Source: Candidatus Omnitrophota bacterium
Lineage (GTDB): Bacteria > Omnitrophota > Gorgyraeia > 2-02-FULL-51-18 > JAGOUK01
Direction of reading: 5' to 3'
Length of the DNA stretch: 60,469 bases
Assembly (NCBI GenBank): GCA_047639455.1
Contig: JBLINS010000004.1
Location: 1 to 60,469 of the forward strand
In this document: positions 4,141 through 45,865 of the stretch, piece by piece
How the letters are laid out: each line of letters opens with the position of its first letter
How positions within the stretch are numbered: position 1 is the stretch's first letter
Notes under the pieces: generated by a model
The model's database searches: none
What the model was told of the DNA's origin: nothing
Seen by the model: only the letters and a program-made list of their open reading frames with translations
Made by a program: the position numbers and the translations under genes

Positions 4141-4340
4141 CTTTTGCTCCCTTCGCTAACTTTAGCAGCCAAATTCTTTAACCATACAATTTCTTGCGGA
4201 TTATCATACCCGCACTTTGGGCATTTAAGCATGCCACAACCACTTGGAGCTCCAGCACTATCGGACTGATGACAGCTATGACAACCACCTACAGCTGCCG
4301 TTGCTTCTGTGAATGACGTATTGCAATACGAGCAGTTCAA
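4101..4340 (-). CDS. Small Cys-rich protein (7 Cys) between feoB and the DtxR-family gene
   Basis: CxxC, CxxC, C, CxxC pattern; overlaps the feoB stop; no signal peptide. Confidence 0.7.
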   Translation of the reverse strand: MNCSYCNTSFTEATAAVGGCHSCHQSDSAGAPSGCGMLKCPKCGYDNPQEIVWLKNLAAKVSEGSKRWSKTLLNTITRK

Positions 4341-6379: not shown

Positions 6380-6403
6380 ATTTTGTCTTTTCTCAATTAG
6401 GCT

Positions 6404-6856
6404 TTAATGACTATGTGGCGATTGATTGCATTTTTGACAAATGCCATAAACAAATAAACGGTGTTGGTTAACGGTGAATCCTTCTGCCTGTGTACTTTTT
6501 TCATAATAACGTGCGAGCTCTTTACCAGCAAATTCAGTGATTCGACCGCATAAATCGCATATCATATGATCATGTTCTTTATGACCATAATGATGCTCAT
6601 AACGCATAGCTTTTTGACCAACATTAAAACCTTCGCCAATGCCTGAATCGCATATAAGTTTCATGGCTCTATGCACAGTTGCATTACTAACCTCAGGGTA
6701 AGATTCCTTAACCTTTATGGCTAATTCATCGACAGTCATATGCCCCTCTTGTGTAAGGAAGACTTCTAGGACTTGATCGCGCTGCTTACTAAAGCGGATT
6801 TGATTCCTTTGTAGGTATTCTTCAAATTCTTTTTTTGGTTCTGCTAATTGACTCAT
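6404..6856 (-). CDS. fur: Fur-family transcriptional regulator
   Basis: HMTVDEL, ATVHR, HDHMICDLCG and CQKC motifs; directly upstream of feoB. Confidence 0.9.
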   Translation of the reverse strand: MSQLAEPKKEFEEYLQRNQIRFSKQRDQVLEVFLTQEGHMTVDELAIKVKESYPEVSNATVHRAMKLICDSGIGEGFNVGQKAMRYEHHYGHKEHDHMICDLCGRITEFAGKELARYYEKSTQAEGFTVNQHRLFVYGICQKCNQSPHSH

Positions 6857-11835: not shown

Positions 11836-12728
11836 ACTTGCACCATCCGTTTCTTCCGCTTGCGTTTAATGGGCGCAGTATTTGCGATTTCACTGGCTTC
11901 TAAACCAAGTGCTAATTTATCTTGAATAAACCTTTTTCTATAAAGCATATAGGCATAAGTGGCCATTTCTTTGGTGAATAAATAATTGAATCCGCCGCTA
12001 ATAACAATCCCAACAATGGGGATGCCGCTTGACAACTTACGCCGAGCATACCATTGTATGATTTTGGTAATCGCCAATTCAGAAATTTCTTTAGCTGCCA
12101 TACCACGAAGTTCTGAGCCAATTAAATTGCGCTTAACCATGGACGAAATCGCCGCATTAATGTCGTCAATTGCCAATTGGCGATCTTTTTCACGTTCTGA
12201 AGCAACTAAACAAAATATTTTATAAGCAAAATCTCGTTCGCTCTTCAAGTCTGGGTCATAACCATAGCAGGCTCCGATTTGTAAGACCATTTTCATATTG
12301 TGCATGAATATCAAAGGGATGTCCAAAAGAGCTAATGCAAATCCGGCGGTCGCAAAACCAGCACCTTGCAAAGTGGTCACAATTTGATTACGGCTAAAGT
12401 AACTCTGTGCTAATTCATCTAAATAAGGGGTGGGTAATTCTTTCATTTCCAATAGGCTATCGACTTCAATGCCCGAGTCCGATGTTTTATCTAATAAAGC
12501 ATCAATATTCACAAAATTTGTTGACGTATCCTGTAATGATTTAAGTGTTTTTTTCATCGGACCAATGGCTTTACTAAGTAATTTTTGGGGTAATATTCTA
12601 TCTATAGCGGAATCTATGGGTGAGAAAAAAAAGCCAACTATCATAGCGGCTTTGCCAGTCCTAAAACGCTGATCTTCCCAGCGTTCAATTTCGACCAAAA
12701 TACGATCGTCTTCAGGATTCCACTTCAC
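11832..12728 (-). CDS. EcsC-family protein
   Basis: LDIPLIF..NMKMVLQIGACYGYD and GIPIVGIVISGGFNY motifs typical of EcsC; 4-bp overlaps with both neighbours. Confidence 0.75.
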   Translation of the reverse strand: MKWNPEDDRILVEIERWEDQRFRTGKAAMIVGFFFSPIDSAIDRILPQKLLSKAIGPMKKTLKSLQDTSTNFVNIDALLDKTSDSGIEVDSLLEMKELPTPYLDELAQSYFSRNQIVTTLQGAGFATAGFALALLDIPLIFMHNMKMVLQIGACYGYDPDLKSERDFAYKIFCLVASEREKDRQLAIDDINAAISSMVKRNLIGSELRGMAAKEISELAITKIIQWYARRKLSSGIPIVGIVISGGFNYLFTKEMATYAYMLYRKRFIQDKLALGLEASEIANTAPIKRKRKKRMVQV

Positions 12729-13690
12729 GCTATCGGTTCCAAATACACATCCACATGGGCTATTGCCTTAACACGTTTCTTCAAAAGTGCGGTGATTTTG
12801 GTCGATACCTCTTCTATTTGAGCCAAACTATGCCCATTATTAAAATCAATTGTGACACCCACCCATAATTTGGTACCCATACGAATGATGCGAATACCTT
12901 CAGTTTTATGATTGACACAAATTTCGCTGACTGTTTGATTGATTTTATTCGTCAATTCCGTGTCCGGCGCCACATCTAATAATACTTTCAAATTGGAATA
13001 CCAATGATGTCCTCCATCAACAACAATCATCAAGCCCACGATTAGTGCTGCCAAATGATCAGCTGCCGCAAATCCAGGTCCCAACTGGGAAAGAAGAATG
13101 CCCAAGGTCACAGCCGTTGACGACCACAAATCAGCCTTGGCCTGCAAGCCATTAGCCATCAAGCCCACACTGTCTAATTTTTGACCTGCGCAAACATTGT
13201 ATCTAAAAATCATATAAGTCATAAAAACCGAAATAATGACAAATGGCAAACCGATTAAATCAGGCGTGACTAATTTGCCTTCTAATAGATAAATGCCGCT
13301 TTCAATAGCAATAAAAAGTCCTAAAGCCATTAATATGCTAAATACACCTAGGGCAACCAAATACTCGACTTTGCCATAACCATAAGGGAATTTGGAATTA
13401 GGTGCTTTTTGAGCTAATTTGAGGCTTATCCATATCATCACACTCGCCAAAACACAGGATAGAGATTGCATTCCATCAGCCATCAAGCCTTTAGAACCCG
13501 ACCAATAACCGCCAAACATCTTCAAAACTGTCAAAAAGATATTCGCAATAATTGTCCAAAAAACGATTTGTGCGGCGCAATCCTGGCAAGTCTTCTTTGA
13601 CCAAGGCAGCCCTTTAAAATTCTTAGAACTAGGTGAGTCTAGGGCTTCATTATCAGCAGCCGTTCGTGGAGGTTTAGTTTGTGTGCTCAA
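12725..13690 (-). CDS. Second CDF transporter, divergent MamB-like paralog
   Basis: N-terminal CxxC (CQDC), SKGLMADG, FPYGYGKVEY, CAG..LDS.GL.AN, cytosolic CTD. The TM2 metal site reads QSLSC instead of HSxxD. Confidence 0.8.
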   Translation of the reverse strand: MSTQTKPPRTAADNEALDSPSSKNFKGLPWSKKTCQDCAAQIVFWTIIANIFLTVLKMFGGYWSGSKGLMADGMQSLSCVLASVMIWISLKLAQKAPNSKFPYGYGKVEYLVALGVFSILMALGLFIAIESGIYLLEGKLVTPDLIGLPFVIISVFMTYMIFRYNVCAGQKLDSVGLMANGLQAKADLWSSTAVTLGILLSQLGPGFAAADHLAALIVGLMIVVDGGHHWYSNLKVLLDVAPDTELTNKINQTVSEICVNHKTEGIRIIRMGTKLWVGVTIDFNNGHSLAQIEEVSTKITALLKKRVKAIAHVDVYLEPIA

Positions 13691-14547
13691 TGTCGGCTGA
13701 ATCCTATATTAGTTACATGTTCATGTGGCAAAGTATCTGTGAACTTTTGATTCACGTTTTGTAATATGTTTTTTAAATCAGACACGGAACTATTCTTAGG
13801 CATGCTCACTTGAGCAACCACTTCTAATGTGACGCCCACGCGCCGTACCTTCAATGTTTTTAATTTGAGTCTTTTATCAGCCTCACGGATATGATCTGAA
13901 ATTTGGCCCAATAAATGACTATTGGTTGATCCGTCCATCAAACCCTTACAGGAATCCCATAAGAAATAAACACTATACCCAAGCAAAGCAAATGTCACTA
14001 ATATGGCCACAATATAGTCGATAATCAAGAACCCATCCCAAGAAAGAACAATGGATATGGTCGTCATACAAGAAACAATGAAATCGACTTGTAATAAAAA
14101 TAAAATGTGTTCAATATCGGCACTAATGGCCCCAAATATCTTATTCTTCCATTGGCGTAATACATATACATCGGCCACGGCAATAAAGGCGGCAATCGTT
14201 GCACCCAATAAACCATCCGGATATAGGGTATGCCAAAAAGTCACATGAATAACAAAGTACAATAAAAAACCCGTCAAAACGGCAATGAGTATCGATGAGG
14301 CCGCGACAATGATGAATTCCAACTTTTCCAAATTCAAATCAAATTTGAACCACCTCGAATTCGGCTTTTTGATTTCATCACTCATGAATATACGCAATAA
14401 ACATATCATTGTGATGAATATGCCAAATAAAGCGAATGATCCCGAAATTAAAAGCGATTTTGAATTAGACAATAAACCAAAACTTGTCTTTATCAACAAG
14501 GAGGCCGCAAAAAATAACAATAAGGAGAGTATGGTCTGTTTATTCAT
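13687..14547 (-). CDS. Second CDF transporter, degenerate MamM-like paralog
   Basis: EKLEFII..S.I..VLTGFLL resembles MamM TM3; CKGLMDG and a CDF C-terminal domain. TM2 Asp absent. Probable start ATG 14547 (MNKQ). Confidence 0.7.
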   Translation of the reverse strand: MNKQTILSLLLFFAASLLIKTSFGLLSNSKSLLISGSFALFGIFITMICLLRIFMSDEIKKPNSRWFKFDLNLEKLEFIIVAASSILIAVLTGFLLYFVIHVTFWHTLYPDGLLGATIAAFIAVADVYVLRQWKNKIFGAISADIEHILFLLQVDFIVSCMTTISIVLSWDGFLIIDYIVAILVTFALLGYSVYFLWDSCKGLMDGSTNSHLLGQISDHIREADKRLKLKTLKVRRVGVTLEVVAQVSMPKNSSVSDLKNILQNVNQKFTDTLPHEHVTNIGFSRH

Positions 14548-14549
14548 AT

Positions 14550-15011
14550 TTATCCAATACGCATCATTTCTGGACCACACCGTGGGCAAAATTGTCTTTG
14601 ATTAGCCGGGCCCCTGGTTTGCCAAGAGCAAACCTGGCATTGAAAGGTGCCTTGATTATTTTGGCCCCTAGACTGCATCGGCATACCCTGCGTAGGCCAA
14701 GACTGCTGCAATTGCATATTTCCTTGCATATTATTTTGCATAGGCATTTGTTGGAATTGCATATTATTTTGCATACGACGACGCTGATTAACCATGGCCA
14801 CATTCTGCATACCCGGCGATGTCGTCATAGTAGGTAATCCTGCAGGGGGTGCCGGCATGGGTAGTAATACCGTTGTCAATACTGCCACGGCCGCACACGT
14901 ACCTATGCCTAATACCCAGATCTTGGCTATGCCTGTTTTGGTGCATTGACTAGGGCAGGCGCCACAACCGGTTGGCCCGCATGATTTATGATCTTTGGGA
15001 TCTGTCTTCAT
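14550..15011 (-). CDS. Membrane-anchored protein: N-terminal Cys cluster, 1 TM, M/Q/N-rich linker, C-terminal Cys4 ribbon
   Basis: CGPTGCGACPSQC before the TM; CQVC...CPRC at the C-terminus. Confidence 0.7.
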   Translation of the reverse strand: MKTDPKDHKSCGPTGCGACPSQCTKTGIAKIWVLGIGTCAAVAVLTTVLLPMPAPPAGLPTMTTSPGMQNVAMVNQRRRMQNNMQFQQMPMQNNMQGNMQLQQSWPTQGMPMQSRGQNNQGTFQCQVCSWQTRGPANQRQFCPRCGPEMMRIG

Positions 15012-20656: not shown

Positions 20657-21568
20657 TTATTTTTTGGCGAATAAACGCCTTTGTTTCTTTATAGCTATTG
20701 TTTCTGTACAAGTAAAAGCAATGGATACATCTTTAATTTGGTCAAAACGTCGCATCAAAGCCAATCGGATCTCTCTAATAACGGCAGACGCTTCTCTAAC
20801 GGACATCTTTAAATCCATAGCAATTTCTATGTCCAGCCAAACACTTTGGCCTATACGCCTCGCTTTAATGAAATTAATTTTCTTAACTCCGCGATAAGGC
20901 TTAATCGCATTTTCTAAAAGAACTAATTTATCCATGGGTAAGGACTTATCAATCAACTGCACCCATGAAGACTTAATCAAAAATATAGCCGTCTTCATAA
21001 TATAAAAAGCTACAAAAACTGCGGCAGCCGGATCCATCCAATAAAAACCCAAATTAGCGCCAATAATACCAATCATCACCGCTATGCTCGAATTCATATC
21101 GGCACGATTTTCTTCTGCATTCGCTACTAATGCCGGTGAATTTAATCTTGTTCCAGCGCAAAATGCATAACCGGACATCGTATAATTCAAAACAATTGAT
21201 ATCACCGTAGCAAAAAATGCCATCATCATTGGTGGCTCGGTAACACCCTCTTTCATCATCTTAATCGCGTCAACCAAAAGCACGCAGGACAAAAGAAAAA
21301 GAATCGTGTAAACAACCAAGGCGCCCGTGAATTCGACTTTGCCCCTGCCCCAAGGATGTTTGTCGTCATCCTTTTTATTAGCAATGAATAAAGTCACAAT
21401 AACCGTTACCGTACCAATAACATCCGTCATTGAATGTATTCCGTCAGCTATCAAACCTTTAGAGCCGGCGAATACACCCATCAGCACAGTGAACACTGCC
21501 AAAAAACTATTTCCAAAAAAACTTACCCATGGCACGCGTTTGCCACAATCAATGCATTTCTGTCTCAC
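20657..21568 (-). CDS. mamB: Magnetosome CDF transporter MamB
   Basis: CIDC, ADGIHSMTD, HPWGRGKVEF, CAG..LNSPALVANAEENRAD. Confidence 0.88.
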   Translation of the reverse strand: MRQKCIDCGKRVPWVSFFGNSFLAVFTVLMGVFAGSKGLIADGIHSMTDVIGTVTVIVTLFIANKKDDDKHPWGRGKVEFTGALVVYTILFLLSCVLLVDAIKMMKEGVTEPPMMMAFFATVISIVLNYTMSGYAFCAGTRLNSPALVANAEENRADMNSSIAVMIGIIGANLGFYWMDPAAAVFVAFYIMKTAIFLIKSSWVQLIDKSLPMDKLVLLENAIKPYRGVKKINFIKARRIGQSVWLDIEIAMDLKMSVREASAVIREIRLALMRRFDQIKDVSIAFTCTETIAIKKQRRLFAKK

Positions 21569-21589
21569 ATCACATCCTTAAACGTACTA

Positions 21590-22477
21590 TCAGGCAATAG
21601 ACATTGGTGTCGGCTTAATCTGCACCAATATACTACCCATGTATCGATCGCGTTTGCGTAAGTCTGCTTTAATATTTTGTACAATGTTTTTTGACTCCAA
21701 AACAGATAAATCAGGATTAATTTCTACGGTTAAGTCGAGTATCATTTTTGAACCAGAGGATCTCGCCAAAACTTGTGTGACATTATCAACTTCATCAATT
21801 TGTAGCACACTCTTCTTAACTTCTTCAATATAACCTTTGGGCGCACTTGCATCCATCATGCCCTTCAAACCTTCCGTCAGGATCGCATAACTACCATGAA
21901 TGATATGTATGGACTCAAATATCGCAATCACTGGATCCGCCCAATGAATCCCTATTCGGGTAGCTAGAACTCCAACAGCAACTAATAAAGAGCCATAAAC
22001 ATCAATCTTATTATGCTCGGCATGTGACCTTAATGTGGGGCTATTCAATTGTCTAGCTCCACAATTCGAAAACTTGTAAACCAAAGCACTAATCACAGAA
22101 GATATAATCGAAACAAAAAATACCAACATATGCGGAATAACCATAACTTGTTTATTCATATGAATGAACGAAGACGCAATCAAAGCAATCGTTCCGGCTA
22201 TCATGGCACCACTGATGCCCACTTGAGCTATGAATTCAATTTTGCCAAATCCATAAGGGTATCCCCTAGTCGCCGGTCTATGGGTATATTTCATTCCCAA
22301 AAAAACCACCATCGAAGAACCAATATCACTCACATTCGACATGCCACTCGCCACCAAAGCATGACTGCGACCCATAAAACCAAAGGTCAATTTAAAAATG
22401 GATAAGAATACCGCTGCTATAAATCCGAGCGAACTCGTGATTTTGGCGCATTTGCGACAAAGCTTTTCATCTTTCAT
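21590..22477 (-). CDS. mamM: Magnetosome CDF transporter MamM
   Basis: CRKC, SNVSD, YPYGFGKIEF, SPTLRSHAEHNKID, ADPVIAIFES. Confidence 0.88.
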   Translation of the reverse strand: MKDEKLCRKCAKITSSLGFIAAVFLSIFKLTFGFMGRSHALVASGMSNVSDIGSSMVVFLGMKYTHRPATRGYPYGFGKIEFIAQVGISGAMIAGTIALIASSFIHMNKQVMVIPHMLVFFVSIISSVISALVYKFSNCGARQLNSPTLRSHAEHNKIDVYGSLLVAVGVLATRIGIHWADPVIAIFESIHIIHGSYAILTEGLKGMMDASAPKGYIEEVKKSVLQIDEVDNVTQVLARSSGSKMILDLTVEINPDLSVLESKNIVQNIKADLRKRDRYMGSILVQIKPTPMSIA

Positions 22478-22958: not shown

Positions 22959-24071
22959 TCACCTCAAAATCACGTGGCAATTCTTGCATTTGCCTCTGTC
23001 TTCATGAGGCATGACCGCATCACGCATAATTGGTGGTGCCGTGGGTAATAAATCGCCCATATCAACCGCTAATTGCCCACCAGTACGCATAATAATATGA
23101 CAAGCCGTACAAGGTTTGTCCATTTTTCTATGCGGACTAATAGCGCCTGGTGGAATTGGCGAAGCGGCTTCATTTTGCGAAAAACCCAAAGTACGCTTGG
23201 AAGCCATGGTCAAGTTCAATAATTGACCTTTACGTGATATCAAAAGCTGGGCCTTGCGTTGATTCTTAACTTTACGAGTACCTTCAGTGAATAGGCGTAA
23301 ATCAGGAGTCGCTATACCATTCACAGCCAAGACAACATCGCCAGCCAAGAAGCCTGATTCAGCCGACTCTAAAGAAACCTCATCCACCAAAACACCCTTG
23401 GTATTCTCGGGAACGCCATTCATACGGGCCAATTGGGCTACTAAAGGAATTAATTCCATGCCCAACCAATGGCCTTCACTTAATATTTTGTCAGCTGCAT
23501 TTTGCTCGAGCGGTGTGGGTAACGGCGCTTGGGGCGTTTGCATGGCTATAGTCACCATGCCATTACCCCTATTACTAGGAATCATAACAGGCATAGCCAC
23601 ATGACCACCCGTGACAATTTTTTCTCTTAATACTTGACTGATTTTATTATGCGCTTTTTTGTGAAAAGAACGATGGTCTTTAATTGTGACAAAGAGTGGT
23701 TTTTTATTACGAATAAGGTCAACAAATACACCTTCCTCAATATCCAAATCTTTTGTCGCACTAAGAAAGTCGCGTATATTCCTAATAGGCCGTCCATTAA
23801 AAGATTTAATCAAATCACCTTGGCGTATGCCAGATTTATAACTGGGGTTATCAGCCCAGCTAACCACAACACCTTTTTCATCAATAGGCACATTGAATTC
23901 ATTAGCGAGCCTAAAACTTGAATTAGAAACTAATAATCCCGCCCATTTGGCTTCACCGACACCAAAACGCATCAAACTCGCCACAAACAATAAGGCCAAT
24001 GCGGTGACGATCACCACAATGATGAGTCTATTATTCCGTGAATCACTTTTACCAAATTTGTTATCAGCCAT
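22959..24071 (-). CDS. mamP: Magnetosome protein MamP (TM, two PDZ, two magnetochromes)
   Basis: EGHWLGMELIPL PDZ; magnetochromes PIPPGAISPH...CTACH and PPIMRDAVMPHEDRGKCKNCH. Confidence 0.93.
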   Translation of the reverse strand: MADNKFGKSDSRNNRLIIVVIVTALALLFVASLMRFGVGEAKWAGLLVSNSSFRLANEFNVPIDEKGVVVSWADNPSYKSGIRQGDLIKSFNGRPIRNIRDFLSATKDLDIEEGVFVDLIRNKKPLFVTIKDHRSFHKKAHNKISQVLREKIVTGGHVAMPVMIPSNRGNGMVTIAMQTPQAPLPTPLEQNAADKILSEGHWLGMELIPLVAQLARMNGVPENTKGVLVDEVSLESAESGFLAGDVVLAVNGIATPDLRLFTEGTRKVKNQRKAQLLISRKGQLLNLTMASKRTLGFSQNEAASPIPPGAISPHRKMDKPCTACHIIMRTGGQLAVDMGDLLPTAPPIMRDAVMPHEDRGKCKNCHVILR

Positions 24072-24630: not shown

Positions 24631-26292
24631 TTAACGCATTGATGCTTCTGTTTTGGCAACCGTACTACTGGCTGCACATGGTTGACCATTGACTTGATGA
24701 CAAGTCGCACATTTGCCACGCCATCCATGCGGCATTGGCGTATTGCAATTAATTGTCGGCAGGCCTCCGCCTGCACCACCAAATAGATCACTCAAAAAAC
24801 CCACATTTTGCATTTGCGCTTCATTAGCTCTGCGTCTTTCCTGACGCTCCATAATTGGCAAAGTTTGAGCAACGGTCATTTGACCTCTATTACCTGTCAT
24901 TTGAGCTACAGGTGTTCCCGTAGCGCAAGGCGCATCCAGAATTTGATGACAATTGGAGCAATTACCACGCCATCCATGCGGCATAATGGAATGACAAGTG
25001 ATTATAGGTGCGCCACCCAAAGCGATATTTTGCATATTGCCACCAAGATTTTCGGCTTGCATACGTCTATTTTGATTAATGTCCATCATACCTGCATTAA
25101 TACCAGCTTGAGATGTTTGAGCACCTGGGCTACCAGCTGGGCATGGGCCATCACGGAATTGATGGCAATTCTGACAAGCGCCACGCCATCCATGCGGCAT
25201 ACGTTTATTACAACTAATCGTGGGCGCTCCGCGCAAAGCCATATTTTGCATGGCAACCATATTCATATTACTCGAAGTTTGTGCGCCCGGAGAGCCTGCT
25301 GCGCATGGGCCGTCCCTGAATTGATGGCAATTCTGACAAGCGCCGCGCCATCCATGTGGCATACGTTGATTACAACCAACAGTTGGCGCACCTCCCATAG
25401 CAATATTTTGCATACCTCTATTTTGATTCATGGGCTCTTGGCGATTTTGATTATTATTCATGGGCCGAAGTTGATTTTGCATAGTTGTTCCACATAATGA
25501 ACAGCGCGGATTAGGCCAGACATTATTATTCTCTACGCGTAGTTTCCAACCGCATGTTGGGCAAAAAAAGTTCTTACGATCCAAATTCATATCATTGGCC
25601 ATCATAGCGTTTTGCTGCTGCATCATTGGGAATGATTGAGTGGGAGGCCCTAATTGAGGAGAAGCATTGGCAAAACCTTGCAATAAAGGATTCTGCATTG
25701 GAGCTATGGGTTGTTGCATGGGTTGCGGCTGAATCATAATGGGTTGATTCATGCGTCGATTTTGATTCACAACTTTAATGCCACCATCAATAGAGAATCT
25801 AGCTTGTCGGTACAAACTAAGGGCTTCTTTGACCTTGCCTTGATAACCGCCATAAGCGCGTATACCTGATTTGGTTAAGACATCATAAGCTTCTGGATTA
25901 ATACTACCGGCAATGACAGCGTCCTCTCCAAGTCCCGCGACAAAATAGGCCATTTGCGAAGAAGGAATCAACATACCCGCATAGGGGTTTTTGATTGATT
26001 CAATGAGTTTATTCCACTCGGGATTAATGACTAAATAATTCGTGGCCTGCGCCAAAGATAATGCGACATTCGAACGCATGGTCGGGCCATCAGCCGCAAC
26101 CACTACCCTGCCGCCGCCAACTGTATTAGCATCGGGATTATTTTTGTTGGGCGAATATAGGGCTAAGAGGCCTATGCCCAATACAAGCACAATGGCGCCG
26201 AATATATAAAACGCATTCAAGTCAGTTGTGTGCAAACGATTCTTAAAATCTTCTAGAGAAACTTCCGCTTTATTTTTGGATTTTTTTGCCAT
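24631..26292 (-). CDS. TM, NifX/NifB-like (Nitro_FeMo-Co) domain, Cys4 ribbon, four magnetochrome-like CxxCH repeats
   Basis: VVVAADG...YLVIN...IKNP...DAVIAGSINP.AY..L..SGI..Y..G.VKEAL; four P.I.C...MPHGWRG.C..CHQ...PC repeats. Confidence 0.8.
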   Translation of the reverse strand: MAKKSKNKAEVSLEDFKNRLHTTDLNAFYIFGAIVLVLGIGLLALYSPNKNNPDANTVGGGRVVVAADGPTMRSNVALSLAQATNYLVINPEWNKLIESIKNPYAGMLIPSSQMAYFVAGLGEDAVIAGSINPEAYDVLTKSGIRAYGGYQGKVKEALSLYRQARFSIDGGIKVVNQNRRMNQPIMIQPQPMQQPIAPMQNPLLQGFANASPQLGPPTQSFPMMQQQNAMMANDMNLDRKNFFCPTCGWKLRVENNNVWPNPRCSLCGTTMQNQLRPMNNNQNRQEPMNQNRGMQNIAMGGAPTVGCNQRMPHGWRGACQNCHQFRDGPCAAGSPGAQTSSNMNMVAMQNMALRGAPTISCNKRMPHGWRGACQNCHQFRDGPCPAGSPGAQTSQAGINAGMMDINQNRRMQAENLGGNMQNIALGGAPIITCHSIMPHGWRGNCSNCHQILDAPCATGTPVAQMTGNRGQMTVAQTLPIMERQERRRANEAQMQNVGFLSDLFGGAGGGLPTINCNTPMPHGWRGKCATCHQVNGQPCAASSTVAKTEASMR

Positions 26293-26310: not shown

Positions 26311-28083
26311 TTAACCATTATTCATCATAGGGTCCCTATCTCTATGGACCATATTCATTTTACATTTGGGGCATACTGGATGGATGCCCATATCATTATT
26401 AATACTTAGCTGCCACCAACACTGTGGGCATACCAAAACGCGATCACGTCGCATTTCTGGCATTAAGCCATGTTGCATCAGAATGTTTCCATCAATATTT
26501 AAATTGTCTTGCATACCACCTCTAAACATCGGCCCAGCCTGTTGTCGATGAATTAGTATTGAGCCGTCAAAAGAGCATAGTGGGTGAACACCCATATCAT
26601 CATTGACACTCAAGCGCCATGAACAAGTTGGGCAAACCAAATTACGATCTTGGATATCCTCCCATATGCCATTATTGCCATTAATGCCATTCAGGCTAAA
26701 GCGTCCACCTCTATCATTATTGTTCATACCCATCATCATATTCATATTCAAATTATTCATATTATTCATGGGGCTAGTCGGCATATTTTGCATAGAATTC
26801 ATAGTAAAATTATTATTCGACATAACGGGCGCATTTTGCATAGCATTCATATTCATTGAATTAACACCCATGCCATTCATTGGCATATTATTGGTATTCA
26901 TCATATTCATATTGCCACCCATACCCATATTCATGCGCCGCCCCATGCCCACGTTTTGCATATTCATGGGTTGCATAGCCACATTTTGCATGCCGAGAAC
27001 ACGTCTATTTGGGTCCATGACGATTTGATCGCGGCCTTTGCCTGTGATGCCAAGTGCAGTGTCCATTTGATTTCCGTCCAAACGTTTTTGATTCTGTAAG
27101 GCCATATTTTGCATATTCGCATTATTGTTGCCACGCATATCCATATTCATGGGTTGCATAGCCATATTTTGCATATTATTATTGTTGCCACGCATATCCA
27201 TATTCATTGGTTGCATAGCCATATTTTGCATATTCATATTCATGGGTTGCATGCCCATATTGGGCATCGCTCCTCCCCGGCCAAACATGGCTAGGGTTTC
27301 GCGATGAATCATAGTCGTATTACAGCGCGGGCAGGCTGGATGTATGCCTTGATCGTCATTGACACTTAATCGAAATAAACATTGGGGACAAACCAGCATT
27401 TTGTCGCGTCTTGGATGCATCATCATATTCGTATTTGGAACCGGCTGCATGGGTGTTTGAATACCATTGGGATTGCCCATATGCGCATGCATTGCATGGG
27501 GATTCATGCCATTATTGCTTTGCACATTACCTAAACTAGTATGACCAGTAACATTGCGATGTTTGAGCACATATATTCGGATGGCTTGTTTCGCAGGCCC
27601 TGTATAACCCGCATGTACGCCCAAGCCTGATTGAGTCAAAATTTGTTGTGATTGGGGTGCAATTGAACCTGCAAGGACAGCTTCCTCTCCCATGCCACTA
27701 ACCAATATAGCCACTTGTTGAGGATTTGTGGGTGTATTAGCATAAGGGTTTTGAACAGCTTCGATGAGCTTAAAGGTATCTGGGTCAACTAACAAATAAT
27801 ATTTGGCTTGTGACATGATTGGCGCCACGGCGGAACGTAAAGATGGGCCATTCGCAGCTATCACAACAGGCTTTGAGTGACGAGCAATAGGATTGCTACC
27901 TTTTTGGGGTCCATAAAAAAATAAAAAGGCCAAGCCAAGCACGAGACTTATGGATGCGACCATAATAAAGGTAGTCAAATCCCAAGTCTTGAATAAATGC
28001 CTCAATTCCTCAATGGATGCATGCGTTACCTTCTCCGTCTGAGGCTTATTTGAAGTATTAGTTTTTTTACGTTTAGTTGCCAA
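26311..28083 (-). CDS. TM, NifX/NifB-like domain, three Cys ribbons and long Met/Asn/Gln-rich tracts
   Basis: Paralog of the flanking genes; three LVCP.C..(R/Q)LS(V/I)N(D/N)D.G.HP.C repeats; 57-bp tandem repeat near 27105-27235. Confidence 0.8.
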   Translation of the reverse strand: MATKRKKTNTSNKPQTEKVTHASIEELRHLFKTWDLTTFIMVASISLVLGLAFLFFYGPQKGSNPIARHSKPVVIAANGPSLRSAVAPIMSQAKYYLLVDPDTFKLIEAVQNPYANTPTNPQQVAILVSGMGEEAVLAGSIAPQSQQILTQSGLGVHAGYTGPAKQAIRIYVLKHRNVTGHTSLGNVQSNNGMNPHAMHAHMGNPNGIQTPMQPVPNTNMMMHPRRDKMLVCPQCLFRLSVNDDQGIHPACPRCNTTMIHRETLAMFGRGGAMPNMGMQPMNMNMQNMAMQPMNMDMRGNNNNMQNMAMQPMNMDMRGNNNANMQNMALQNQKRLDGNQMDTALGITGKGRDQIVMDPNRRVLGMQNVAMQPMNMQNVGMGRRMNMGMGGNMNMMNTNNMPMNGMGVNSMNMNAMQNAPVMSNNNFTMNSMQNMPTSPMNNMNNLNMNMMMGMNNNDRGGRFSLNGINGNNGIWEDIQDRNLVCPTCSWRLSVNDDMGVHPLCSFDGSILIHRQQAGPMFRGGMQDNLNIDGNILMQHGLMPEMRRDRVLVCPQCWWQLSINNDMGIHPVCPKCKMNMVHRDRDPMMNNG

Positions 28084-28112: not shown

Positions 28113-29333
28113 TTAACCATTGTTGTTGTTATTATTATTATTGTTTCGCATATCCATATTCATGGGCATCATAGCCATATTTTGCATATTGTTATTGTTA
28201 CGATTATTATTGTTGTTTCGCATATCCATATTCATGGGCATCATATTATTATTGGCACCCATACCTTGATTCATGCCATTTTGATTAATCATATTCTGAT
28301 GTACTGTGGGTATGCCACAAAATGGGCAGCGCACATGATTGCCTATATCATTCTTAACTTGAATTCTCCACATACAATTCGGACAAACTAAAGTCCTATC
28401 CTTAGGCGTTTCCATCATAGGCTGATTCATAGCCACATTTTGCATCATCATAGGTTGCTGCTGCATCATCATGGATTGTTGCTGAGCCATGCTTGGCTGA
28501 GGATTGGACCAACCATACAATAATGGGTTTTGTGTATTTGATGACATGCCATTGGGTTGCATATTATTCATACCCATAGTTGGTTGCTGCATCATTCCTG
28601 GCTGTTGCATCATGGCGTTAGGATTCATGGGCATGTTTTGATTGCCTCTATTGCCTCCAATACCGACTTGTACGCCGGCAAGATTGCCCGTAGGGAATTG
28701 TTGAGGAGATGTTTTGCGTACGACCAAATATAAGTCAATCGCATTTTTGGCTCGTCCCGTGTAACCGCCATAGGCATTAATTCCCGATTGACTAAAGGCT
28801 ACATTTGACTGGGGGTTGATGAAGCCAGCAAGTACAGCTTCTTCACCCAGGCCGGCAACAAAATAGGCCACCTGAGTCATGGGCACTTGTTTTCCAAAAT
28901 AAGGATTTTTGATGGCTTCTAACAAACGACCATTAGCCGGATCAACCACTAAAAAATATTTGCCCGTAGATAAAGTTGGGGCCACATTGGAGCGTAAGGC
29001 TGGACCCGTTGCTGCAACCACAATTCTTTGACCAGCGGCAGTGACCATGCGGCCATTTTTATGCGCGCCACCCACATGCGGGTGATAAATGGCCAATACG
29101 GCTATACCGAGAACCAAAATAACAGCGGCAAATATAAAGAAAGTGTTCATATCCCATTTTTGTAAACGGCCTTTGATCACGTCATAAGACGGACCAATTT
29201 TGTCGCTTACTTGCTCTTTGATTTTTCCAAAAGTTTCGCCAACGGCGCTCGCACTCAAATTCTCAGCAATGCGTTGGCTGGTTTTTTTTCTAGGTGCCCG
29301 GGATACTTTTTTTCTTACTTTTTTTGCAGCCAT
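28113..29333 (-). CDS. TM, NifX/NifB-like domain, Cys4 ribbon and Met/Asn/Gln-rich tail
   Basis: IVVAATGPALRSNVAP...YFLVVDP...AIKNPY...EAVLAG; CPNC...CPFC; 72-bp repeat near 28141-28245. Confidence 0.8.
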   Translation of the reverse strand: MAAKKVRKKVSRAPRKKTSQRIAENLSASAVGETFGKIKEQVSDKIGPSYDVIKGRLQKWDMNTFFIFAAVILVLGIAVLAIYHPHVGGAHKNGRMVTAAGQRIVVAATGPALRSNVAPTLSTGKYFLVVDPANGRLLEAIKNPYFGKQVPMTQVAYFVAGLGEEAVLAGFINPQSNVAFSQSGINAYGGYTGRAKNAIDLYLVVRKTSPQQFPTGNLAGVQVGIGGNRGNQNMPMNPNAMMQQPGMMQQPTMGMNNMQPNGMSSNTQNPLLYGWSNPQPSMAQQQSMMMQQQPMMMQNVAMNQPMMETPKDRTLVCPNCMWRIQVKNDIGNHVRCPFCGIPTVHQNMINQNGMNQGMGANNNMMPMNMDMRNNNNNRNNNNMQNMAMMPMNMDMRNNNNNNNNNG

Positions 29334-29378: not shown

Positions 29379-29951
29379 TTAAACTTGTTTTTGTTGAGCT
29401 AAATTGCCTGAATTCAAAGCGCCATAATCATAACTAAAAGGCACGCTCACATAAATTCCGCGGCCATTGCGATATACATCTAAAAGAATGCCATCTTGAT
29501 AAGGTATTTGACTGGTGGCGGCCTCAAAAGTTTTGCCATTTGAAACTGGCATGTGATTAACTGCGCGAATCACATCAAACATTTGAACCGATTGTAATGC
29601 GGCTAAGCCGTATTGTTTGTCCAAGCCATAAACAAATACACCCTGTACTTCTCTGGGTATACCAAATTCTTTGCGCAATGTCCTACTCAGTGGCAATAAA
29701 TCAATGCCTAACCAACGCAAAGCCTTGCTGTTGGGCAAACGCTGACTTGCTGGCACAACATTCATCACTGGTACAGCCTGTCGACTTTGCCTCATTGTAC
29801 GCAAACCTCTCACAGCTGGACGCATTGATTGTGTCACAGCCAAAAAGTAAGTTAATGCCACCACAATCAAGACAACTAAAGCCGCATAAATGGGATAAGT
29901 CTTACAAAGTTTTTTGATTGTTTCAATCCATTCCATCAAAGTTTGCATCAT
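29379..29951 (-). CDS. Membrane-anchored single-PDZ protein (MamE-Cter-like)
   Basis: TM, then RWLGIDL...GVFV...FDVIRAVN...VYRNG; overlaps the mamE stop. Confidence 0.75.
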   Translation of the reverse strand: MMQTLMEWIETIKKLCKTYPIYAALVVLIVVALTYFLAVTQSMRPAVRGLRTMRQSRQAVPVMNVVPASQRLPNSKALRWLGIDLLPLSRTLRKEFGIPREVQGVFVYGLDKQYGLAALQSVQMFDVIRAVNHMPVSNGKTFEAATSQIPYQDGILLDVYRNGRGIYVSVPFSYDYGALNSGNLAQQKQV

Positions 29952-31390
29952 ATCAATTCTATCTTTCGCGTTATGGTTTGACCGTTTCTTAATATAATGA
30001 CATCAACCACATCACCAGCTTTAAAAGTTGGCAATATCATCGGTATATCTTGGGTTCGTTGAATGGGTGTATTGGCCAAGGATATAATCACATCCCCTCT
30101 TTGCAATCCGCCAATTGCCGCAGGACTATTATCAATGACGCGATTAATCACAACACCTTCTGAGAGAGGTGCATTCAATTGCCGAGCCATAATACTATCC
30201 ATGGTTAGTCCCTCAACTCCAAACTGAACCGGCTTGGTGGGCGCCATCGCTTGCGCTGTTTGGTTATTACCAAAGAATTGCCCAAATAATGGGAACTTCG
30301 CTTGTTGAGGTCCGTAATTAGTTCCTAATTGTGTGCCAATGAATTGCTTGGCGTCATTAATCGGTATGGCAAAACCTGTACCATTAAAAAAACCATTGGG
30401 TGCATAAATGGCTGTATTCACACCAATGACTTCGCCATCCATATTCACCATGGGGCCACCTGATGATCCGCGATTAATCGGTGCATCGGTTTGAATTAAG
30501 TGGTCATACCTCACACCATCAATGCGTGTTGATTTGCGTATACCGCTGACAATACCGCTAGTCACGGTTTGATGCATGCCAAAGGGACTGCCAATGGCAA
30601 TCACAAAGTCAGCTGTTTGTAAGGCATCCGAATTACCAAAACGCGCTGGTGGAATTCGACTACCCGCTTGAATTTTGATCAAAGCCAAATCGCGGGTTGG
30701 GTCATGTGCTATAAATTCTGCGACATAATCACGATCAATTTTGCCAGGCACGGTGACACGGATATTTCTAGCGTTTTTGACCACATGGTAATTCGTGAGG
30801 ATATACCCACGTGCATCAAAAAAAGTGCCTGCACCTATATTTTCGAAGCCTTGATTATCAATAAATTTATCTATAGTGCCATCAAATGGTTTGACGAATT
30901 GGGGGTCTTGTGGATTTGTTGGAGTGGTGGGCGTGTTTTGCTGAACCCACATAGCGTGTATGTCCACAACAGATGGCAAGGCTGTATTGACTGCATCCTT
31001 GAGTGCGTTTTGTAAACCAATATGACCTTGTTGTTTAGTTGCACCTTGAATAGCAACTGGTTGCATATTGGATTGCATGCCATTATTCATACCAGCAACT
31101 TGCCGCATAGCCACTTGTTGAAAGCTGCCATTATTTTGATTACGCAAAAGTGGTGAATTAACCGGGATGTTTTGAATGGGACTAGCAATCAAAGGTTGAA
31201 CTGGCACGGCAACCAAAGGTTGTGTTTGAGCGGCAGTTGCGTCAACAGCACCAAATAACAGGTGATCACCCTGTAATACACCCCAACCTACAATGGCAAC
31301 TAATAGCAAAGACAACACAATTATCCAAGGCTTTTTGGGCTTATCGCAAAAGAAATCGTCTTCGTGAACTTGTTCGCTAAATCGTGACAT
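29948..31390 (-). CDS. mamE: HtrA-type magnetosome protease MamE (TM, trypsin, PDZ)
   Basis: Intact triad TNYHVV, DLAL, GSSGGP; TDAPIN; C-terminal PDZ; context next to mamI. No CxxCH in this chain. Confidence 0.88.
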   Translation of the reverse strand: MSRFSEQVHEDDFFCDKPKKPWIIVLSLLLVAIVGWGVLQGDHLLFGAVDATAAQTQPLVAVPVQPLIASPIQNIPVNSPLLRNQNNGSFQQVAMRQVAGMNNGMQSNMQPVAIQGATKQQGHIGLQNALKDAVNTALPSVVDIHAMWVQQNTPTTPTNPQDPQFVKPFDGTIDKFIDNQGFENIGAGTFFDARGYILTNYHVVKNARNIRVTVPGKIDRDYVAEFIAHDPTRDLALIKIQAGSRIPPARFGNSDALQTADFVIAIGSPFGMHQTVTSGIVSGIRKSTRIDGVRYDHLIQTDAPINRGSSGGPMVNMDGEVIGVNTAIYAPNGFFNGTGFAIPINDAKQFIGTQLGTNYGPQQAKFPLFGQFFGNNQTAQAMAPTKPVQFGVEGLTMDSIMARQLNAPLSEGVVINRVIDNSPAAIGGLQRGDVIISLANTPIQRTQDIPMILPTFKAGDVVDVIILRNGQTITRKIELI

Positions 31391-41437: not shown

Positions 41438-43237
41438 TTATTGAGAGCGCCAGATTTTGAGTGGTAGGGAGCCTAGGGCCATGAATAGTATTTGGGTGAC
41501 TATGAAACTGATTAGCCAGAAAAAGGCTTTGTCCATAAAGCCGTAAGAATGCAACCCAACGCCAAGCATATTCACACCAAACCAAGAAAAGCTCGTAACA
41601 ATATTACCAAAGATCACACTGACCATTAATCCGCGTGTCTGAATCACACGTGCTTTGAGTGAGTGTAGCACAATCAAATTCCATAGGACGATTAATAGAG
41701 CCCCATTCTCTTTAGGATCCCAGCCCCAAAAACGGCCCCATGATTGATCAGCCCATATACCGCCCAAAGCCGTACCAACAAAACTAAAAAATAAACTAAA
41801 ACAAACAATTCCATAAACCATGGAATGCGCTTCTTGTTTTTCTTGTGCGCTAAAGTTAGTCGTGAATAAACCACGTAATATATAGGCAATGCCCATAAAC
41901 CCAGCTAAAAAAGTACCGCTATAGCCCATGGTCACAGTAATCACATGTGTTGATAACCAAAAATTAGAATCCAAAACAGCTTGCATCATTTCTAAGGTAT
42001 CGCCTGAGAGTGACAAGTGGTGTGCGATAATTAAAGTTGTGAAGCCTATCGCGCTTGCGGTCAATATTCCCATGCGGTTTTTATAAAAATACTCTAAAAT
42101 TTGACTCACGAATATTGCTATCCACCCGACAAAAACAGCGGATGCATACAAATTCGTGACAGGCGGCCTGCCCTGCAAAACCATGCGGCTAATCAAACCT
42201 ATGGTGTGAATAATAAAGGCTAGCAAAAGCATATTGCCTGCTAAACGACCCAAGCCTTTAGGCCAAAAAAGCCAAGACAAAATAATCAAAATAAAGCTCA
42301 GTAAGTACAAAACCACACTTTTGTAAAATGGCTCAAAGTCATTAAATAATACTTCGAAACGAGCTTTTTGATAGGCCTGTCGCAACTCGCTATTGGACGT
42401 TTGATTTAATTCATTAAGCGTTTCATTTAAGCTTGGCCAATCTTGAGTATTGTATTGATCTAATAATTGTGCATAAGCACTCAGACCTGGGTGAAAGAGT
42501 TTTGTTTGCATAAAATTCATAAAGCTATGGCCTGTATTTAGCCAGTCCTCGGGTTCCGAGCTCTGCCCTTCCAAAGGCGCAATGGGCGCAAATAATGCCA
42601 CGCGACTCGAGAATTCATACTTCTCTTGTAGCTGTGCCAAATCATTACCATCAGAACCCGGAACATGGGACATCATAATAGACTTATCCTCTTCTAAAAC
42701 ATGATTAGCGTCTAAAAATAGGTATTCAGAAAACAAAGTATTTTTTAATCGGGAATAGAGCATCAGGTGATCTTTTAAACTAATTAAGGCGCGTTGATAA
42801 GGCGACCAAAGTTTTTTTGTATATTGACCGACTTGTTGAGATTGAGCGTGGATTTGGGCCAAATGCGGCATGAGTTCAGCATAACTAAACATTTTCTTTT
42901 TTAAGTCACGCATACCTAAGAAGACTTTGACATCTGGATTATGAATTAAGAATATTGGGTATTGATCAGCAATTTCAGCGCGGGTCAAAACGTCCACAAG
43001 CCATTGAGTTGCATTTAACTGTTTATCTTTTAAGCGTAGTTTTTGTTTACCGTGAATTAAAATCAAAGACAAACGCGCCACTGAATCTAGAGGCTTGAGG
43101 CGTCCATTATGCAATACCGGGATATGTCCAATTTGTTCTTGGTGAATAGCTTCAATCGTTTTGGGTTTTTGAAGCATGGGCATGCTCAAACCAATTAAAA
43201 GCATTAGTGGAATGAGGGCACATAATATTTTCTTCAT
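41438..43237 (-). CDS. ccsA: System II cytochrome c synthase CcsA/ResC with large N-terminal soluble domain
   Basis: GRPPVTNLY, WLSTHV, WWD motif GGIWADQSWGRFWGWDPKE, GLHSYG. Confidence 0.93.
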   Translation of the reverse strand: MKKILCALIPLMLLIGLSMPMLQKPKTIEAIHQEQIGHIPVLHNGRLKPLDSVARLSLILIHGKQKLRLKDKQLNATQWLVDVLTRAEIADQYPIFLIHNPDVKVFLGMRDLKKKMFSYAELMPHLAQIHAQSQQVGQYTKKLWSPYQRALISLKDHLMLYSRLKNTLFSEYLFLDANHVLEEDKSIMMSHVPGSDGNDLAQLQEKYEFSSRVALFAPIAPLEGQSSEPEDWLNTGHSFMNFMQTKLFHPGLSAYAQLLDQYNTQDWPSLNETLNELNQTSNSELRQAYQKARFEVLFNDFEPFYKSVVLYLLSFILIILSWLFWPKGLGRLAGNMLLLAFIIHTIGLISRMVLQGRPPVTNLYASAVFVGWIAIFVSQILEYFYKNRMGILTASAIGFTTLIIAHHLSLSGDTLEMMQAVLDSNFWLSTHVITVTMGYSGTFLAGFMGIAYILRGLFTTNFSAQEKQEAHSMVYGIVCFSLFFSFVGTALGGIWADQSWGRFWGWDPKENGALLIVLWNLIVLHSLKARVIQTRGLMVSVIFGNIVTSFSWFGVNMLGVGLHSYGFMDKAFFWLISFIVTQILFMALGSLPLKIWRSQ

Positions 43238-44379
43238 TGAGCGGACCGGCTACCCCTTTGAACAAAATTCTTTAATTGGCTCATGAATTGAATCAATAAG
43301 CCTAGGGCCACTAAAGCGCAAGAAATATAAGGCACAATCCACCCGGGATTATGAATCACATCCAGTATGGACATAGTGTCATTTTGACCAAAGCTAGCTT
43401 GATAATAAGTCTTTCCACGATGACGTAAAGGGTGATTCATATAAATCAGAGCATCCCTTTCTTCACCGCGCTTTGGATCTGATAAATATATTTCACTAGA
43501 AAAGTTTTTAGGAATTTGGGTGCCTGCATAGATTTCATGTTTGAAGTCTTTAAGCGTAATATCGTAATCATTATAATAGCGTTTGGCTCTAATTTGCATA
43601 TCATAGGCAATGCCTTTGAATTCAAAACGTTGTGGAGCCGCCATAACCAAAGAGAATAACCACGTACCCAAACGCTCAGAGCCGTCCCACAACTCAACAA
43701 AAGCGGTGGCTTGTTCGGGCCGCACATCGCTATTAAATAAATCTAGGGCCGTTACATGCGCTCCCTGCCCAAGGCCTTGGTCCACGCTTGGGTATAGCGG
43801 GTCTTCAACAGCATGTTCGTGAATCACGACATCCGCATTAGGTAAGTATTTTTGCACTTTGATTTGAAAAGGCAAATCACCCTCTTGAATTAAAGTATTC
43901 TTTTTAAGTCGCGACTCGGGAATGCTAGTAATGGTGTCAATGAGCGGATGGGACTTATTAATAATGGCTAATTCTACTTTGCTATAAGACTCTGAATAAT
44001 TCTTAGTCTCGCCCTCTGATATCATCATAAAGCCATCATTGGATAATACCGACGTGATGCCACCGCCTATCATCAGCACCATTATGCCCGCATGAATAAT
44101 AATAAGACCTATATTTTGTTTTTTGAATTTGAAACGCGTCAAAAAAACAGCCGTCAAATTAACAATTAAGATCAACCCGACTAAATAACCCCCAGGGAAA
44201 ACGGGGACTCGATAAGAGCCTATAGGGTGAAACACAAAAAAGGTGAGGAAGTATTTCTTTTGCACGGCATATATACCTAAATTCACCTGATCCATTGTGC
44301 CGACGAATATTAGCAGCATATAAATCATCAAACAAATGATAACGACCCGCAGTGATGTGAAAAAACGTAGAATGGCCAT
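43234..44379 (-). CDS. resB: System II cytochrome c biogenesis protein ResB/CcsB
   Basis: GT..Q, IHAG, MNHPL.H.G..YYQASF, NPG..VPY; overlaps ccsA. Confidence 0.88.
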   Translation of the reverse strand: MAILRFFTSLRVVIICLMIYMLLIFVGTMDQVNLGIYAVQKKYFLTFFVFHPIGSYRVPVFPGGYLVGLILIVNLTAVFLTRFKFKKQNIGLIIIHAGIMVLMIGGGITSVLSNDGFMMISEGETKNYSESYSKVELAIINKSHPLIDTITSIPESRLKKNTLIQEGDLPFQIKVQKYLPNADVVIHEHAVEDPLYPSVDQGLGQGAHVTALDLFNSDVRPEQATAFVELWDGSERLGTWLFSLVMAAPQRFEFKGIAYDMQIRAKRYYNDYDITLKDFKHEIYAGTQIPKNFSSEIYLSDPKRGEERDALIYMNHPLRHRGKTYYQASFGQNDTMSILDVIHNPGWIVPYISCALVALGLLIQFMSQLKNFVQRGSRSAQ

Positions 44380-44395
44380 AGGTATGTGCTTAATC

Positions 44396-44791
44396 TTAGG
44401 AATGAATTAAACGACCACCGGTATAACCGGTCAATAATATGAGTAAAGTGCCGATTAAGGCCGTGAAGAGATGGTATTTTTGATAATAACCTTCTTTCGG
44501 ATCCGCCCATTTCCAATAAGCGCCCCTAAAGATATAAACATATAATGTGCCAATAGAATTAATATAATGCGTACGGCCCACGCCATTAAAGCCACCCCAA
44601 GCCTCCATATCCATAAATCCAGATATCATACTTAAGATCAGAAAAATAAATCCAGCTATGAAATTAATACGTGCGAATCGCAAATAAGCCGGATCTTTTT
44701 TATAGACCCATAAACATAAAAGTACGAATTCAAAAAATAATAAAGTTATCGGAAAATGAATAACTATAATGTGATTAAAAAAGTTCAGCAT
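44396..44791 (-). CDS. DUF2231-like membrane protein
   Basis: HIIVIHFPI start and TGYTGGRL end; four TM segments. Confidence 0.7.
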   Translation of the reverse strand: MLNFFNHIIVIHFPITLLFFEFVLLCLWVYKKDPAYLRFARINFIAGFIFLILSMISGFMDMEAWGGFNGVGRTHYINSIGTLYVYIFRGAYWKWADPKEGYYQKYHLFTALIGTLLILLTGYTGGRLIHS

Positions 44792-44854
44792 GGTCTAATT
44801 TTCATTCTATTAATTTTAAAAAGTTCATTTGTTATTCAGGGTACGCTATCCCCC

Positions 44855-44985
44855 GTCATTGCGAGGCCGTTTTGTGGCCGCGGCAATCTAAGCCCCGTAA
44901 CTAATCAATTTTATTTATATTTGACACCTAATATCTAATCTTACACTAGATTGCCGCGTTGCTGCTCCGCGCAACTCGCAATGAC
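44855..44985. repeat. REP-like inverted pair
   Basis: gtcattgcgagg...ggcaatct / agattgcc...ctcgcaatgac. Confidence 0.75.
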
Positions 44986-45056
44986 GTGATGACTACTCCG
45001 CGCCTGTCTGCCGACAAGCAGGCAACGTTCACCGGTCGTAGTCGAAAGATCTTATT

Positions 45057-45842: not shown

Positions 45843-45865
45843 ATGGTAGGGTCGAAATAAATGAT

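Follow-up and report, generated by a model that had tools for sequence, protein, structure and literature searches.

The DNA analysed here is a stretch of 60,469 nucleotides (below, the window) from a Candidatus Omnitrophota bacterium (contig JBLINS010000004.1 of assembly GCA_047639455.1), which carries a magnetosome gene cluster. The subject is the gene at 24631..26292 on the reverse strand, termed here the magnetosome NifX-ZnR-MCR gene, whose product combines one transmembrane (TM) helix, a NifX-like domain, a zinc ribbon (ZnR) and four magnetochrome domains (MCRs), each of the latter being bracketed by two additional cysteines. Magnetochromes are the smallest known mono-haem cytochrome domains (19–28 residues); they follow the order psi1-x5-9-PH-x5-9-CxxCH-psi2, are closed only by the contact between psi1 and psi2, leave the haem highly exposed to solvent and occur almost always in tandem, for a reason that was posed as an open question (PMC3971196). 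Judged by its sequence and gene position, the product is the positional orthologue of the Omnitrophota NifX-ZnR-MCR magnetosome protein. The identical 553-aa protein is also encoded in the separate Logan assembly SRR28416802, and therefore the repeats described below are not an assembly artefact.

The N-terminus preceding the TM helix is Lys-rich, from which an N-in orientation, with all that follows the helix lying in the periplasm or magnetosome lumen, is predicted by the positive-inside rule; covalent haem attachment requires such a periplasmic or lumenal site. The TM helix is followed by the NifX-like domain, for which the AlphaFold2 (AF2) model was matched by Foldseek with 1rdu, 2wfb, 1o13, 9ian_F and 1p90 (template modelling score TMt 0.57–0.81, E 4e-8 to 5e-4), the best neighbours in the PDB being the NifB-like TM1290, the D. 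gigas orange protein (ORP), TM1816, NifX and NafY. This domain has no conserved Cys or His, and its invariant residues in the family alignment (A3) include N102-P103 and E123. A Q/P/M-rich linker leads to the zinc ribbon, to which Pfam DZR gives a weak match, and the C-terminal half of the protein carries the MCRs on linkers that are long, variable, of low complexity and rich in Q, N, M and G. The full-length AF2 prediction, built on a multiple sequence alignment of 15 rows, yielded a model of the TM helix, of the NifX-like domain and of part of the ribbon, but of no other region.

All four MCRs fit the pattern P-x-[VI]-x-C-x3-MPHGWRG-x-CxxCHQ-x4-PC. The segment MPHGWRG-x-C is invariant in 4/4 repeats, with five residues separating the distal His from the first Cys of CxxCH; psi1 is the V or I of P-x-[VI], and psi2 is F, I or V two residues after the CxxCH His. 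An alignment of the four repeats (41 aa each) has 18 invariant columns, among them both additional Cys. With CxxCH, the distal PH spacing and both psi residues in place, the repeats align in register with the MCR of MamP (4JJ0), the only solved relative; the protein has one TM helix, lies in a magnetosome cluster and reaches 57.7 bits in four stretches with the Pfam MCR profile (PF18509, gathering cut-off 30.4). The tandem arrangement, which is usual but not obligatory for MCRs, is absent: the CxxCH motifs follow each other at 54, 72 and 83 aa, whereas the median distance is 32 aa for the 318 other motifs with a neighbour. When the window was scanned with a degenerate DNA pattern (C-x4-[PA]H-x3-G-x-CxxCH-x5-PC), exactly these four repeats were matched and nothing was found in 100 dinucleotide shuffles. 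Thus the statement of the first-pass annotation that four magnetochrome motifs with an extra Cys pair are present has held. Its further remark that the neighbouring MamP has tandem MCRs without extra Cys was equally correct, since the two MCRs of MamP stand 41 aa apart and lack these residues, which makes this gene an internal control within the cluster.

Features of the magnetosome NifX-ZnR-MCR gene and of related genes in the window
Feature	Position	Strand	Details and basis
Magnetosome NifX-ZnR-MCR gene	24631..26292	-	553-aa product: TM + NifX-like + Zn ribbon + 4xMCR (open reading frame (ORF), Pfam, homologues, synteny)
Single N-terminal TM helix, aa 27-46 (predicted)	26155..26214	-	Kyte-Doolittle maximum 2.6 at aa 27; AF2 helix aa 25-45
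NifX/NifB-C/orange-protein-like domain, aa ~60-165	25798..26115	-	PF02579 (Nitro_FeMo-Co) 27.6 bits vs cut-off 26.3; AF2 predicted local distance difference test (pLDDT) ~84-95
Zinc-ribbon-like CPxC...CxxC motif	25483..25569	-	C244, C247, C264, C267; Cys columns invariant or nearly invariant in alignment A3
MCR repeat 1, aa 303-330	25303..25386	-	PTVGC307NQRMPH313GWRGAC319QNC322H323QFRDGPC330; CxxCH starts at aa 319; Cys1 to Cys2 25303-25374
MCR repeat 2, aa 357-384	25141..25224	-	extra Cys 361 and 384; CxxCH 373-377; Cys1 to Cys2 25141-25212
MCR repeat 3, aa 429-456	24925..25008	-	extra Cys 433 and 456; CxxCH 445-449; Cys1 to Cys2 24925-24996
MCR repeat 4, aa 512-539	24676..24759	-	extra Cys 516 and 539; CxxCH 528-532; Cys1 to Cys2 24676-24747
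MamP	22959..24071	-	2 PDZ-like domains + canonical tandem MCR pair (Pfam, motif scan)
Tandem paralogue 2	26311..28083	-	TM + NifX-like + 3 Zn ribbons, no MCR; N/M/Q-rich linkers (ORF, Pfam, alignment A3)
Tandem paralogue 3	28113..29333	-	TM + NifX-like + 1 Zn ribbon, no MCR; aligns with the family; Pfam no hit
MamE-like trypsin-PDZ protease without MCR	29948..31390	-	domain annotation
System II cytochrome c biogenesis	41438..44379	-	ResB-like 43234..44379, CcsA-like 41438..43237; machinery needed for covalent haem attachment

The repeats are 54–83% identical to one another, and even in repeats 3 and 4, which share only 54%, both extra Cys are retained, TGT and TGC codons alternating at both positions among the four repeats. 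Invariance in spite of such divergence and of these codon changes points to selection on the two residues. Repeats 1 and 2 had been described as nearly identical at the DNA level and as a sign of recent expansion; in fact the identity is 80.5% across 41 codons and 86% in the best-matching 116 nt, and their 13 synonymous and 7 non-synonymous codon differences indicate that the recent date was overstated. The 162-nt duplication that comprises repeats 1 and 2 was not called by TRF, because the copies are too diverged.

The distribution of the Cys pair was estimated by an exhaustive search of 1.84 billion representative proteins with a profile of the four repeats, which returned 192 proteins at E<=1e-3; the 163 proteins compared contained 344 MCR-like motifs. 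Both flanking Cys were present in nine motifs, four of which belong to the window gene itself, while 333 had neither; one motif had the upstream Cys only and another the downstream Cys only, in a protein that begins inside the motif. Two spacings were distinguished, namely type A, which is that of the window gene, and type B, in which the first Cys stands one residue earlier and the second follows as CH-x4-C. Outside the window the profile search found type A in two proteins only, both MamE-like: P0015, with two such MCRs 84 aa apart, and P0081, with a single one, whose 90% cluster includes a protein of a Nitrospina sp. metagenome-assembled genome (MAG; MBT5548874.1). Type B was found on the first MCR of P0044 and P0090, three-MCR proteins of unrelated architecture. 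The same two proteins possess a C-terminal His-containing multi-TM domain without Pfam match, possibly a membrane redox partner.

The DNA pattern was also applied to 185,579 GTDB species genomes, where one genuine match was obtained, the MamE-like gene of Nitrospinota MAG_09705_ntspn_70 (L004), a MAG from Uzun et al. 2020 (PMC7449369), and to JGI metagenomes, where four genuine contigs, all with MamE-like genes, were found, one of them being the contig of the same MAG. The remaining matches (four of five in genomes and four of eight in metagenomes, from Rossellomorea, Streptomyces, Prevotellaceae, Kitasatospora and others) either did not lie in frame or were interrupted by stop codons, and were discarded as chance. 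The Cys-bracketed MCRs of P0015 and P0081 score 28.4 and 20.5 bits, under the Pfam cut-off of 30.4, so that such proteins are annotated only as protease or PDZ and the domain is under-detected in public data. No description of a Cys-bracketed MCR was found in the literature searched. The Cys-bracketed MCR is a real, rare and undescribed variant of a known domain, though not unique to this gene. The first-pass annotation had regarded the extra-Cys form as a variant magnetochrome and had named a standard, widespread subtype as one finding that would contradict it; the count of 9/344, together with the lack of the pair in 12 orthologues and three syntenic clusters, agrees with the former.

The sequence comparison suggests, with a probability of about 0.6, that the gene encodes a lumenal redox protein with four haem modules, each most likely closed by an intradomain disulfide. 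According to this proposal the protein would be held by one TM anchor in the magnetosome lumen, which is derived from the periplasm, and would display its MCRs like beads on flexible Q/N/M-rich linkers, each module binding one c-type haem through CxxCH with bis-His ligation by the His of CxxCH and the His of PH. Cys1, located two residues after psi1 in the arm that leads to the distal His, would be joined with Cys2, located seven residues after the CxxCH His behind a D/N-G/A-P turn. Such a bond would tie the N-terminal arm with its distal-His loop to the C-terminal tail and so covalently close a fold of about 28 residues, whereas canonical MCRs are closed only by the hydrophobic psi1-psi2 contact and by packing on the tandem partner. 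With such a staple an isolated MCR could keep its fold, and the exposure and potential of the haem would probably be tuned as well. Redox control of Fe(II)/Fe(III) in biomineralisation could then be the task of the four haems; by analogy with MamP/MamT and FmpB, the protein likely acts as a membrane-anchored lumenal multi-haem electron shuttle for the Fe(II)/Fe(III) balance.

Several observations support the disulfide. The two Cys are nearly always gained or lost together (nine motifs with both against two with a single one, among 344), and hence the pair behaves as a unit. The differently spaced pair on the unrelated MCRs of P0044 and P0090 fits a fold-closing link and not a precise ligand geometry. 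Furthermore, all seven type-A MCRs are isolated, the nearest CxxCH being at least 54 aa away or the domain being single, whereas for 81% of Cys-less MCRs a partner lies no more than 45 aa away; the clamp would make up for the absent tandem partner. For Cys-pair MCRs of both types the isolation amounts to 7/9 (Fisher p=3e-4, phylogeny uncorrected). For repeat 2, a focused AF2 model of 51 aa has the psi1 (I359)–psi2 (F379) bridge and a CxxC helix at 373–376, and its best Foldseek match in the PDB is MamP, although non-significant (E=3, 24 columns, rmsd 1.9 A). In Magnetospirillum gryphiswaldense MSR-1 the mutants in DsbA/DsbB form fewer or defective magnetosomes, and the lumenal domains of Mam proteins pass through the periplasm (PMC7676999).

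There are also facts that weigh against a disulfide clamp. The pLDDT of the full model is below 50 over the MCR region and the mean in the focused model is 62.6; the bond is proposed from comparison of sequences. Cys1 (psi1+2) and Cys2 (psi2+5) are out of simple register across the psi1-psi2 bridge, which means that the tail must turn back, and with four Cys in a stretch of 24 residues wrong pairing becomes more likely in cytochrome c maturation. Single MCRs without the pair occur in Omnitrophota orthologues, and a staple is accordingly not required for a stand-alone MCR. The association with isolation comes from only 2–3 independent lineages, and no Dsb-type oxidase was identified within the 60 kb window.

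Among the other explanations of the Cys pair, two give it a role in metal or redox chemistry and both can be considered unlikely. It could provide metal ligands, the pairs from two repeats or protomers binding Fe, Zn or a small Fe-S centre beside each haem, which would carry further the metallocluster theme represented by the NifX-like domain and the zinc ribbons; a NifX/ORP-like cluster-carrier fold and a Cys4 ribbon in the same protein, the eight extra Cys over four repeats and the iron mineralisation by the organism speak in its favour. However, Nitrospina-type MamE-like proteins have a single MCR with a single pair, the second type of pair differs in spacing, no additional conserved His or Cys ligand accompanies the pair, and the inter-repeat linkers are long, variable and of low complexity. 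The pair could instead be a redox-active regulatory or catalytic dithiol/disulfide, a variant of the disulfide idea, which exchanges electrons with the haem or thiol partners and gates the MCR by the redox state of the lumen. This assumption, as improbable as the previous one, draws on the same co-conservation as the staple, on the nearness of the pair to the haem ligands in sequence and on the sensitivity of magnetosome formation to the Dsb pathway (PMC7676999), but the pair spans 22 residues including the entire haem site, has no CxxC-like or thioredoxin-like context and is accompanied by no evident partner oxidoreductase in the cluster. A related and equally doubtful suggestion joins both possibilities: the eight extra Cys might form redox-active thiol/disulfide or iron-thiolate sites coupled to the haems, in a haem-plus-sulfur relay which, jointly with the NifX/ORP-like cluster-carrier domain, would supply or process iron or iron-sulfur species within the magnetosome. 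If true, the smallest known cytochrome domain would thereby have a cofactor arrangement that is new.

It is still less probable that the pair is a neutral lineage-specific feature without function which was spread by duplication of repeats. Indeed, all four copies arose from internal duplication and orthologues function without the pair; nevertheless both Cys are invariant in repeats 3 and 4 at only 54% identity, the changes between TGT and TGC at both sites are synonymous, and MamE-like proteins that were assigned to a different phylum have retained the same pair. The least credible explanation is that one of the added Cys is bound covalently to the haem as a third attachment, as proposed earlier alongside the disulfide, or acts as an axial ligand. 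The one point in its favour is that the Cys lie near the haem-binding residues in the sequence. Against it, haem b has two vinyl groups and CxxCH consumes both, the two axial His (of PH and of CxxCH) are invariant in 4/4 repeats, and two Cys are co-conserved, not one. A third thioether or a Cys axial ligand was therefore rejected on chemistry and on the invariance of both His ligands.

If the disulfide-braced form occurs only as isolated modules, it offers a testable answer to the question of why magnetochromes are nearly always tandem, namely that stability needs either a partner domain or a staple. For the engineering of redox proteins, a Cys-braced MCR might also provide a haem peptide scaffold that is compact and self-contained. 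At present the practical importance is confined to specialists, and the finding is incremental unless the extra Cys do redox or metal chemistry.

Concerning the origin of the variant, a comparison without the Cys columns places repeats 1 and 2 nearest to the first MCR of P0015, including the tail DGPC-x-AG-x-PGA, and repeats 3 and 4 to Omnitrophota-type MCRs such as PPISSNAVMPHGYRGVCSNCHQILDTPA. The closest Cys-less relatives have the form PPIS-S-N...CHQILD[AT]P-A, with Ser and Ala in place of the two Cys, and they already possess the D-x-P turn of the tail, so that the variant may be considered as two small substitutions on an existing scaffold. The MamE-like carriers of type A are 45–66% identical to one another and all of them keep both Cys. 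About 30 residues of sequence are compatible with one origin of type A followed by transfer between MamE-like and NifX-type proteins as well as with two origins.

Nitrospina-type MamE-like HtrA proteases (P0081, L004, L012, P0015) share with the window gene the pattern PTISC-x3-[MIL][PA]H-x3-G-x-CxxCH-x3-[GA]PC, and their MCRs are likewise isolated (single or 84 aa apart) on N/M/G-rich linkers. They differ in the host protein, which is of trypsin-MCR-PDZ architecture, and their named records are only Nitrospina/Nitrospinota; the MamE-like protein of the window, on the contrary, has no MCR, and the MamK of the window is only ~38% identical to MamK of the Nitrospina type. The N/M/G-rich linkers of L004 and P0081 also resemble those of the paralogues in the window.

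Compared with MamP of strain MO-1 (PDB 4JJ0/4JJ3), the window MCRs preserve psi1-x6-PH-x5-CxxCH-psi2 in register with the first MCR of MamP, and the magnetosome-cluster context and the single TM anchor are the same (PMC3971196). The differences from the MamP type are the two conserved Cys added at psi1+2 and His+7 and the number and distance of the domains, since the window protein has four copies 54–83 aa apart on low-complexity linkers and MamP has two in tight tandem. Magnetochromes and a domain of NifX/NifB type in one magnetosome protein are also known from FmpB/MamP* of Desulfovibrio magneticus RS-1 (DMR_41100) and occur in P0014; FmpB, named after "fewer magnetic particles", joins MCRs to a NifX-type domain (PMC4287615; for the combination of MCR with NifX/NifB also PMC3971196). 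The order in FmpB/MamP* is, however, reversed (MCR-PDZ-NifX, as against NifX followed by MCR in the window protein), and these proteins possess a PDZ domain but neither a zinc ribbon nor the bracketing Cys. Pfam gave no PDZ match in the product of 24631..26292, whose architecture is thus not that of FmpB/MamP*. A functional parallel is found in Rhodobacter cytochrome c1 and plant cytochrome c6A, in which two Cys that do not bind haem form a disulfide close to the haem pocket; this bond stabilises the ligand loop and influences the midpoint potential. The folds of these cytochromes are unrelated and much larger, and the likeness is functional only.

The closest family members are 12 homologues from Omnitrophota (P0002–P0013, e.g., in GCA_015231405.1) with 27–48% identity to the window protein, which share with it the TM helix, the NifX-like domain, one or more CPxC..CPxC ribbons and C-terminal MCR(s) (alignment A3, Pfam). 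The combination of TM helix, NifX/ORP-like domain, zinc ribbon and MCR is an uncharacterised family at a fixed position in Omnitrophota magnetosome clusters. The orthologues have 1–2 MCRs per protein of the form APPIxSNAxMPHxYRGVCSNCHQI, and the extra Cys pair is absent from the MCRs of 12/12: unlike the window protein with both Cys, they have Ser (or Arg, Pro, Ala) at the Cys1 position and no Cys2. In turn, all 12 have a Cys directly after the TM helix (NPAC[GD]) and 10 of them a C-terminal C-[IVP]-[LVI]-[KRQ] motif, both missing from all three paralogues of the window in alignment A3. These two elements could be partners in a long-range disulfide or a signal for C-terminal processing or sorting.

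The gene order HTH17-MamI-x-MamE-PDZ-[NifX-ZnR-MCR]-small-small-MamP is common to three Omnitrophota loci (L015, L016, L017), all MCRs of which are devoid of the extra Cys pair, and in L015 and L017 it continues after MamP with CDF-CDF-(TPR)-LemA-PDZ/CitMHS-TauE. The gene at 24631..26292 stands, like the family gene in these loci, in the slot that has the MamE/PDZ genes on one side and MamP on the other, and in the window the gene is triplicated, the copies having one ribbon (28113..29333), three ribbons (26311..28083) and one ribbon with four MCRs (24631..26292). The linkers of the two MCR-free copies are extremely rich in N, M and Q and include a 57-nt tandem repeat at 27101..27237. In L016 (12900..21311; JGI 3300041085, Omnitrophota) MamP is directly followed by a NAD-binding protein, a CcsA-like gene and a run of haem-biosynthesis genes (HemA, HemC, HemD/methylase, HemB), the run including two radical-SAM/SPASM genes that resemble an alternative haem pathway.

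Upstream of 24631..26292 lie the two paralogues, a PDZ-like protein, the trypsin-PDZ MamE-like protein without MCR and an HTH_17 gene. Downstream, all on the reverse strand, there are two small ORFs followed by MamP, two CDF transporters, a TPR protein and a LemA protein, and farther PDZ-CitMHS, TauE and PDZ proteins, a second CDF pair, an EcsC-family protein and the actin-like MamK. Two separate pairs of CDF (MamM/MamB-like) genes are therefore present in one cluster, at 12725..14589 and 20657..22477, and the gene 13687..14589 of the second pair is highly diverged (Pfam E 2.5e-8). Beyond the MamK end of the cluster, just downstream of it at 3463..6856, genes of a DtxR-FeoA fusion, FeoB and Fur are located, and a small reverse-strand ORF at 4104..4370 contains one CxxC and one CxxCH motif.

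On the other side, ~10–15 kb upstream of the magnetosome genes, the region 41438..46492 carries the CcsA-like and ResB-like genes together with a DUF2231 membrane protein and an Nfu/NifU scaffold gene. Among the matches listed for the GspE/PilB ATPase of the window, all taxon-named best ones are from Omnitrophota, with 59–66% identity. Since the synteny of the cluster is Omnitrophota-like as well, the window was assigned to an uncultured magnetotactic member of Omnitrophota, and a Nitrospinota genome as its source was rejected. The region 49949..50995 encodes a fusion of an IS200-like Y1 transposase domain with a C-terminal helix-turn-helix domain of DnaA.

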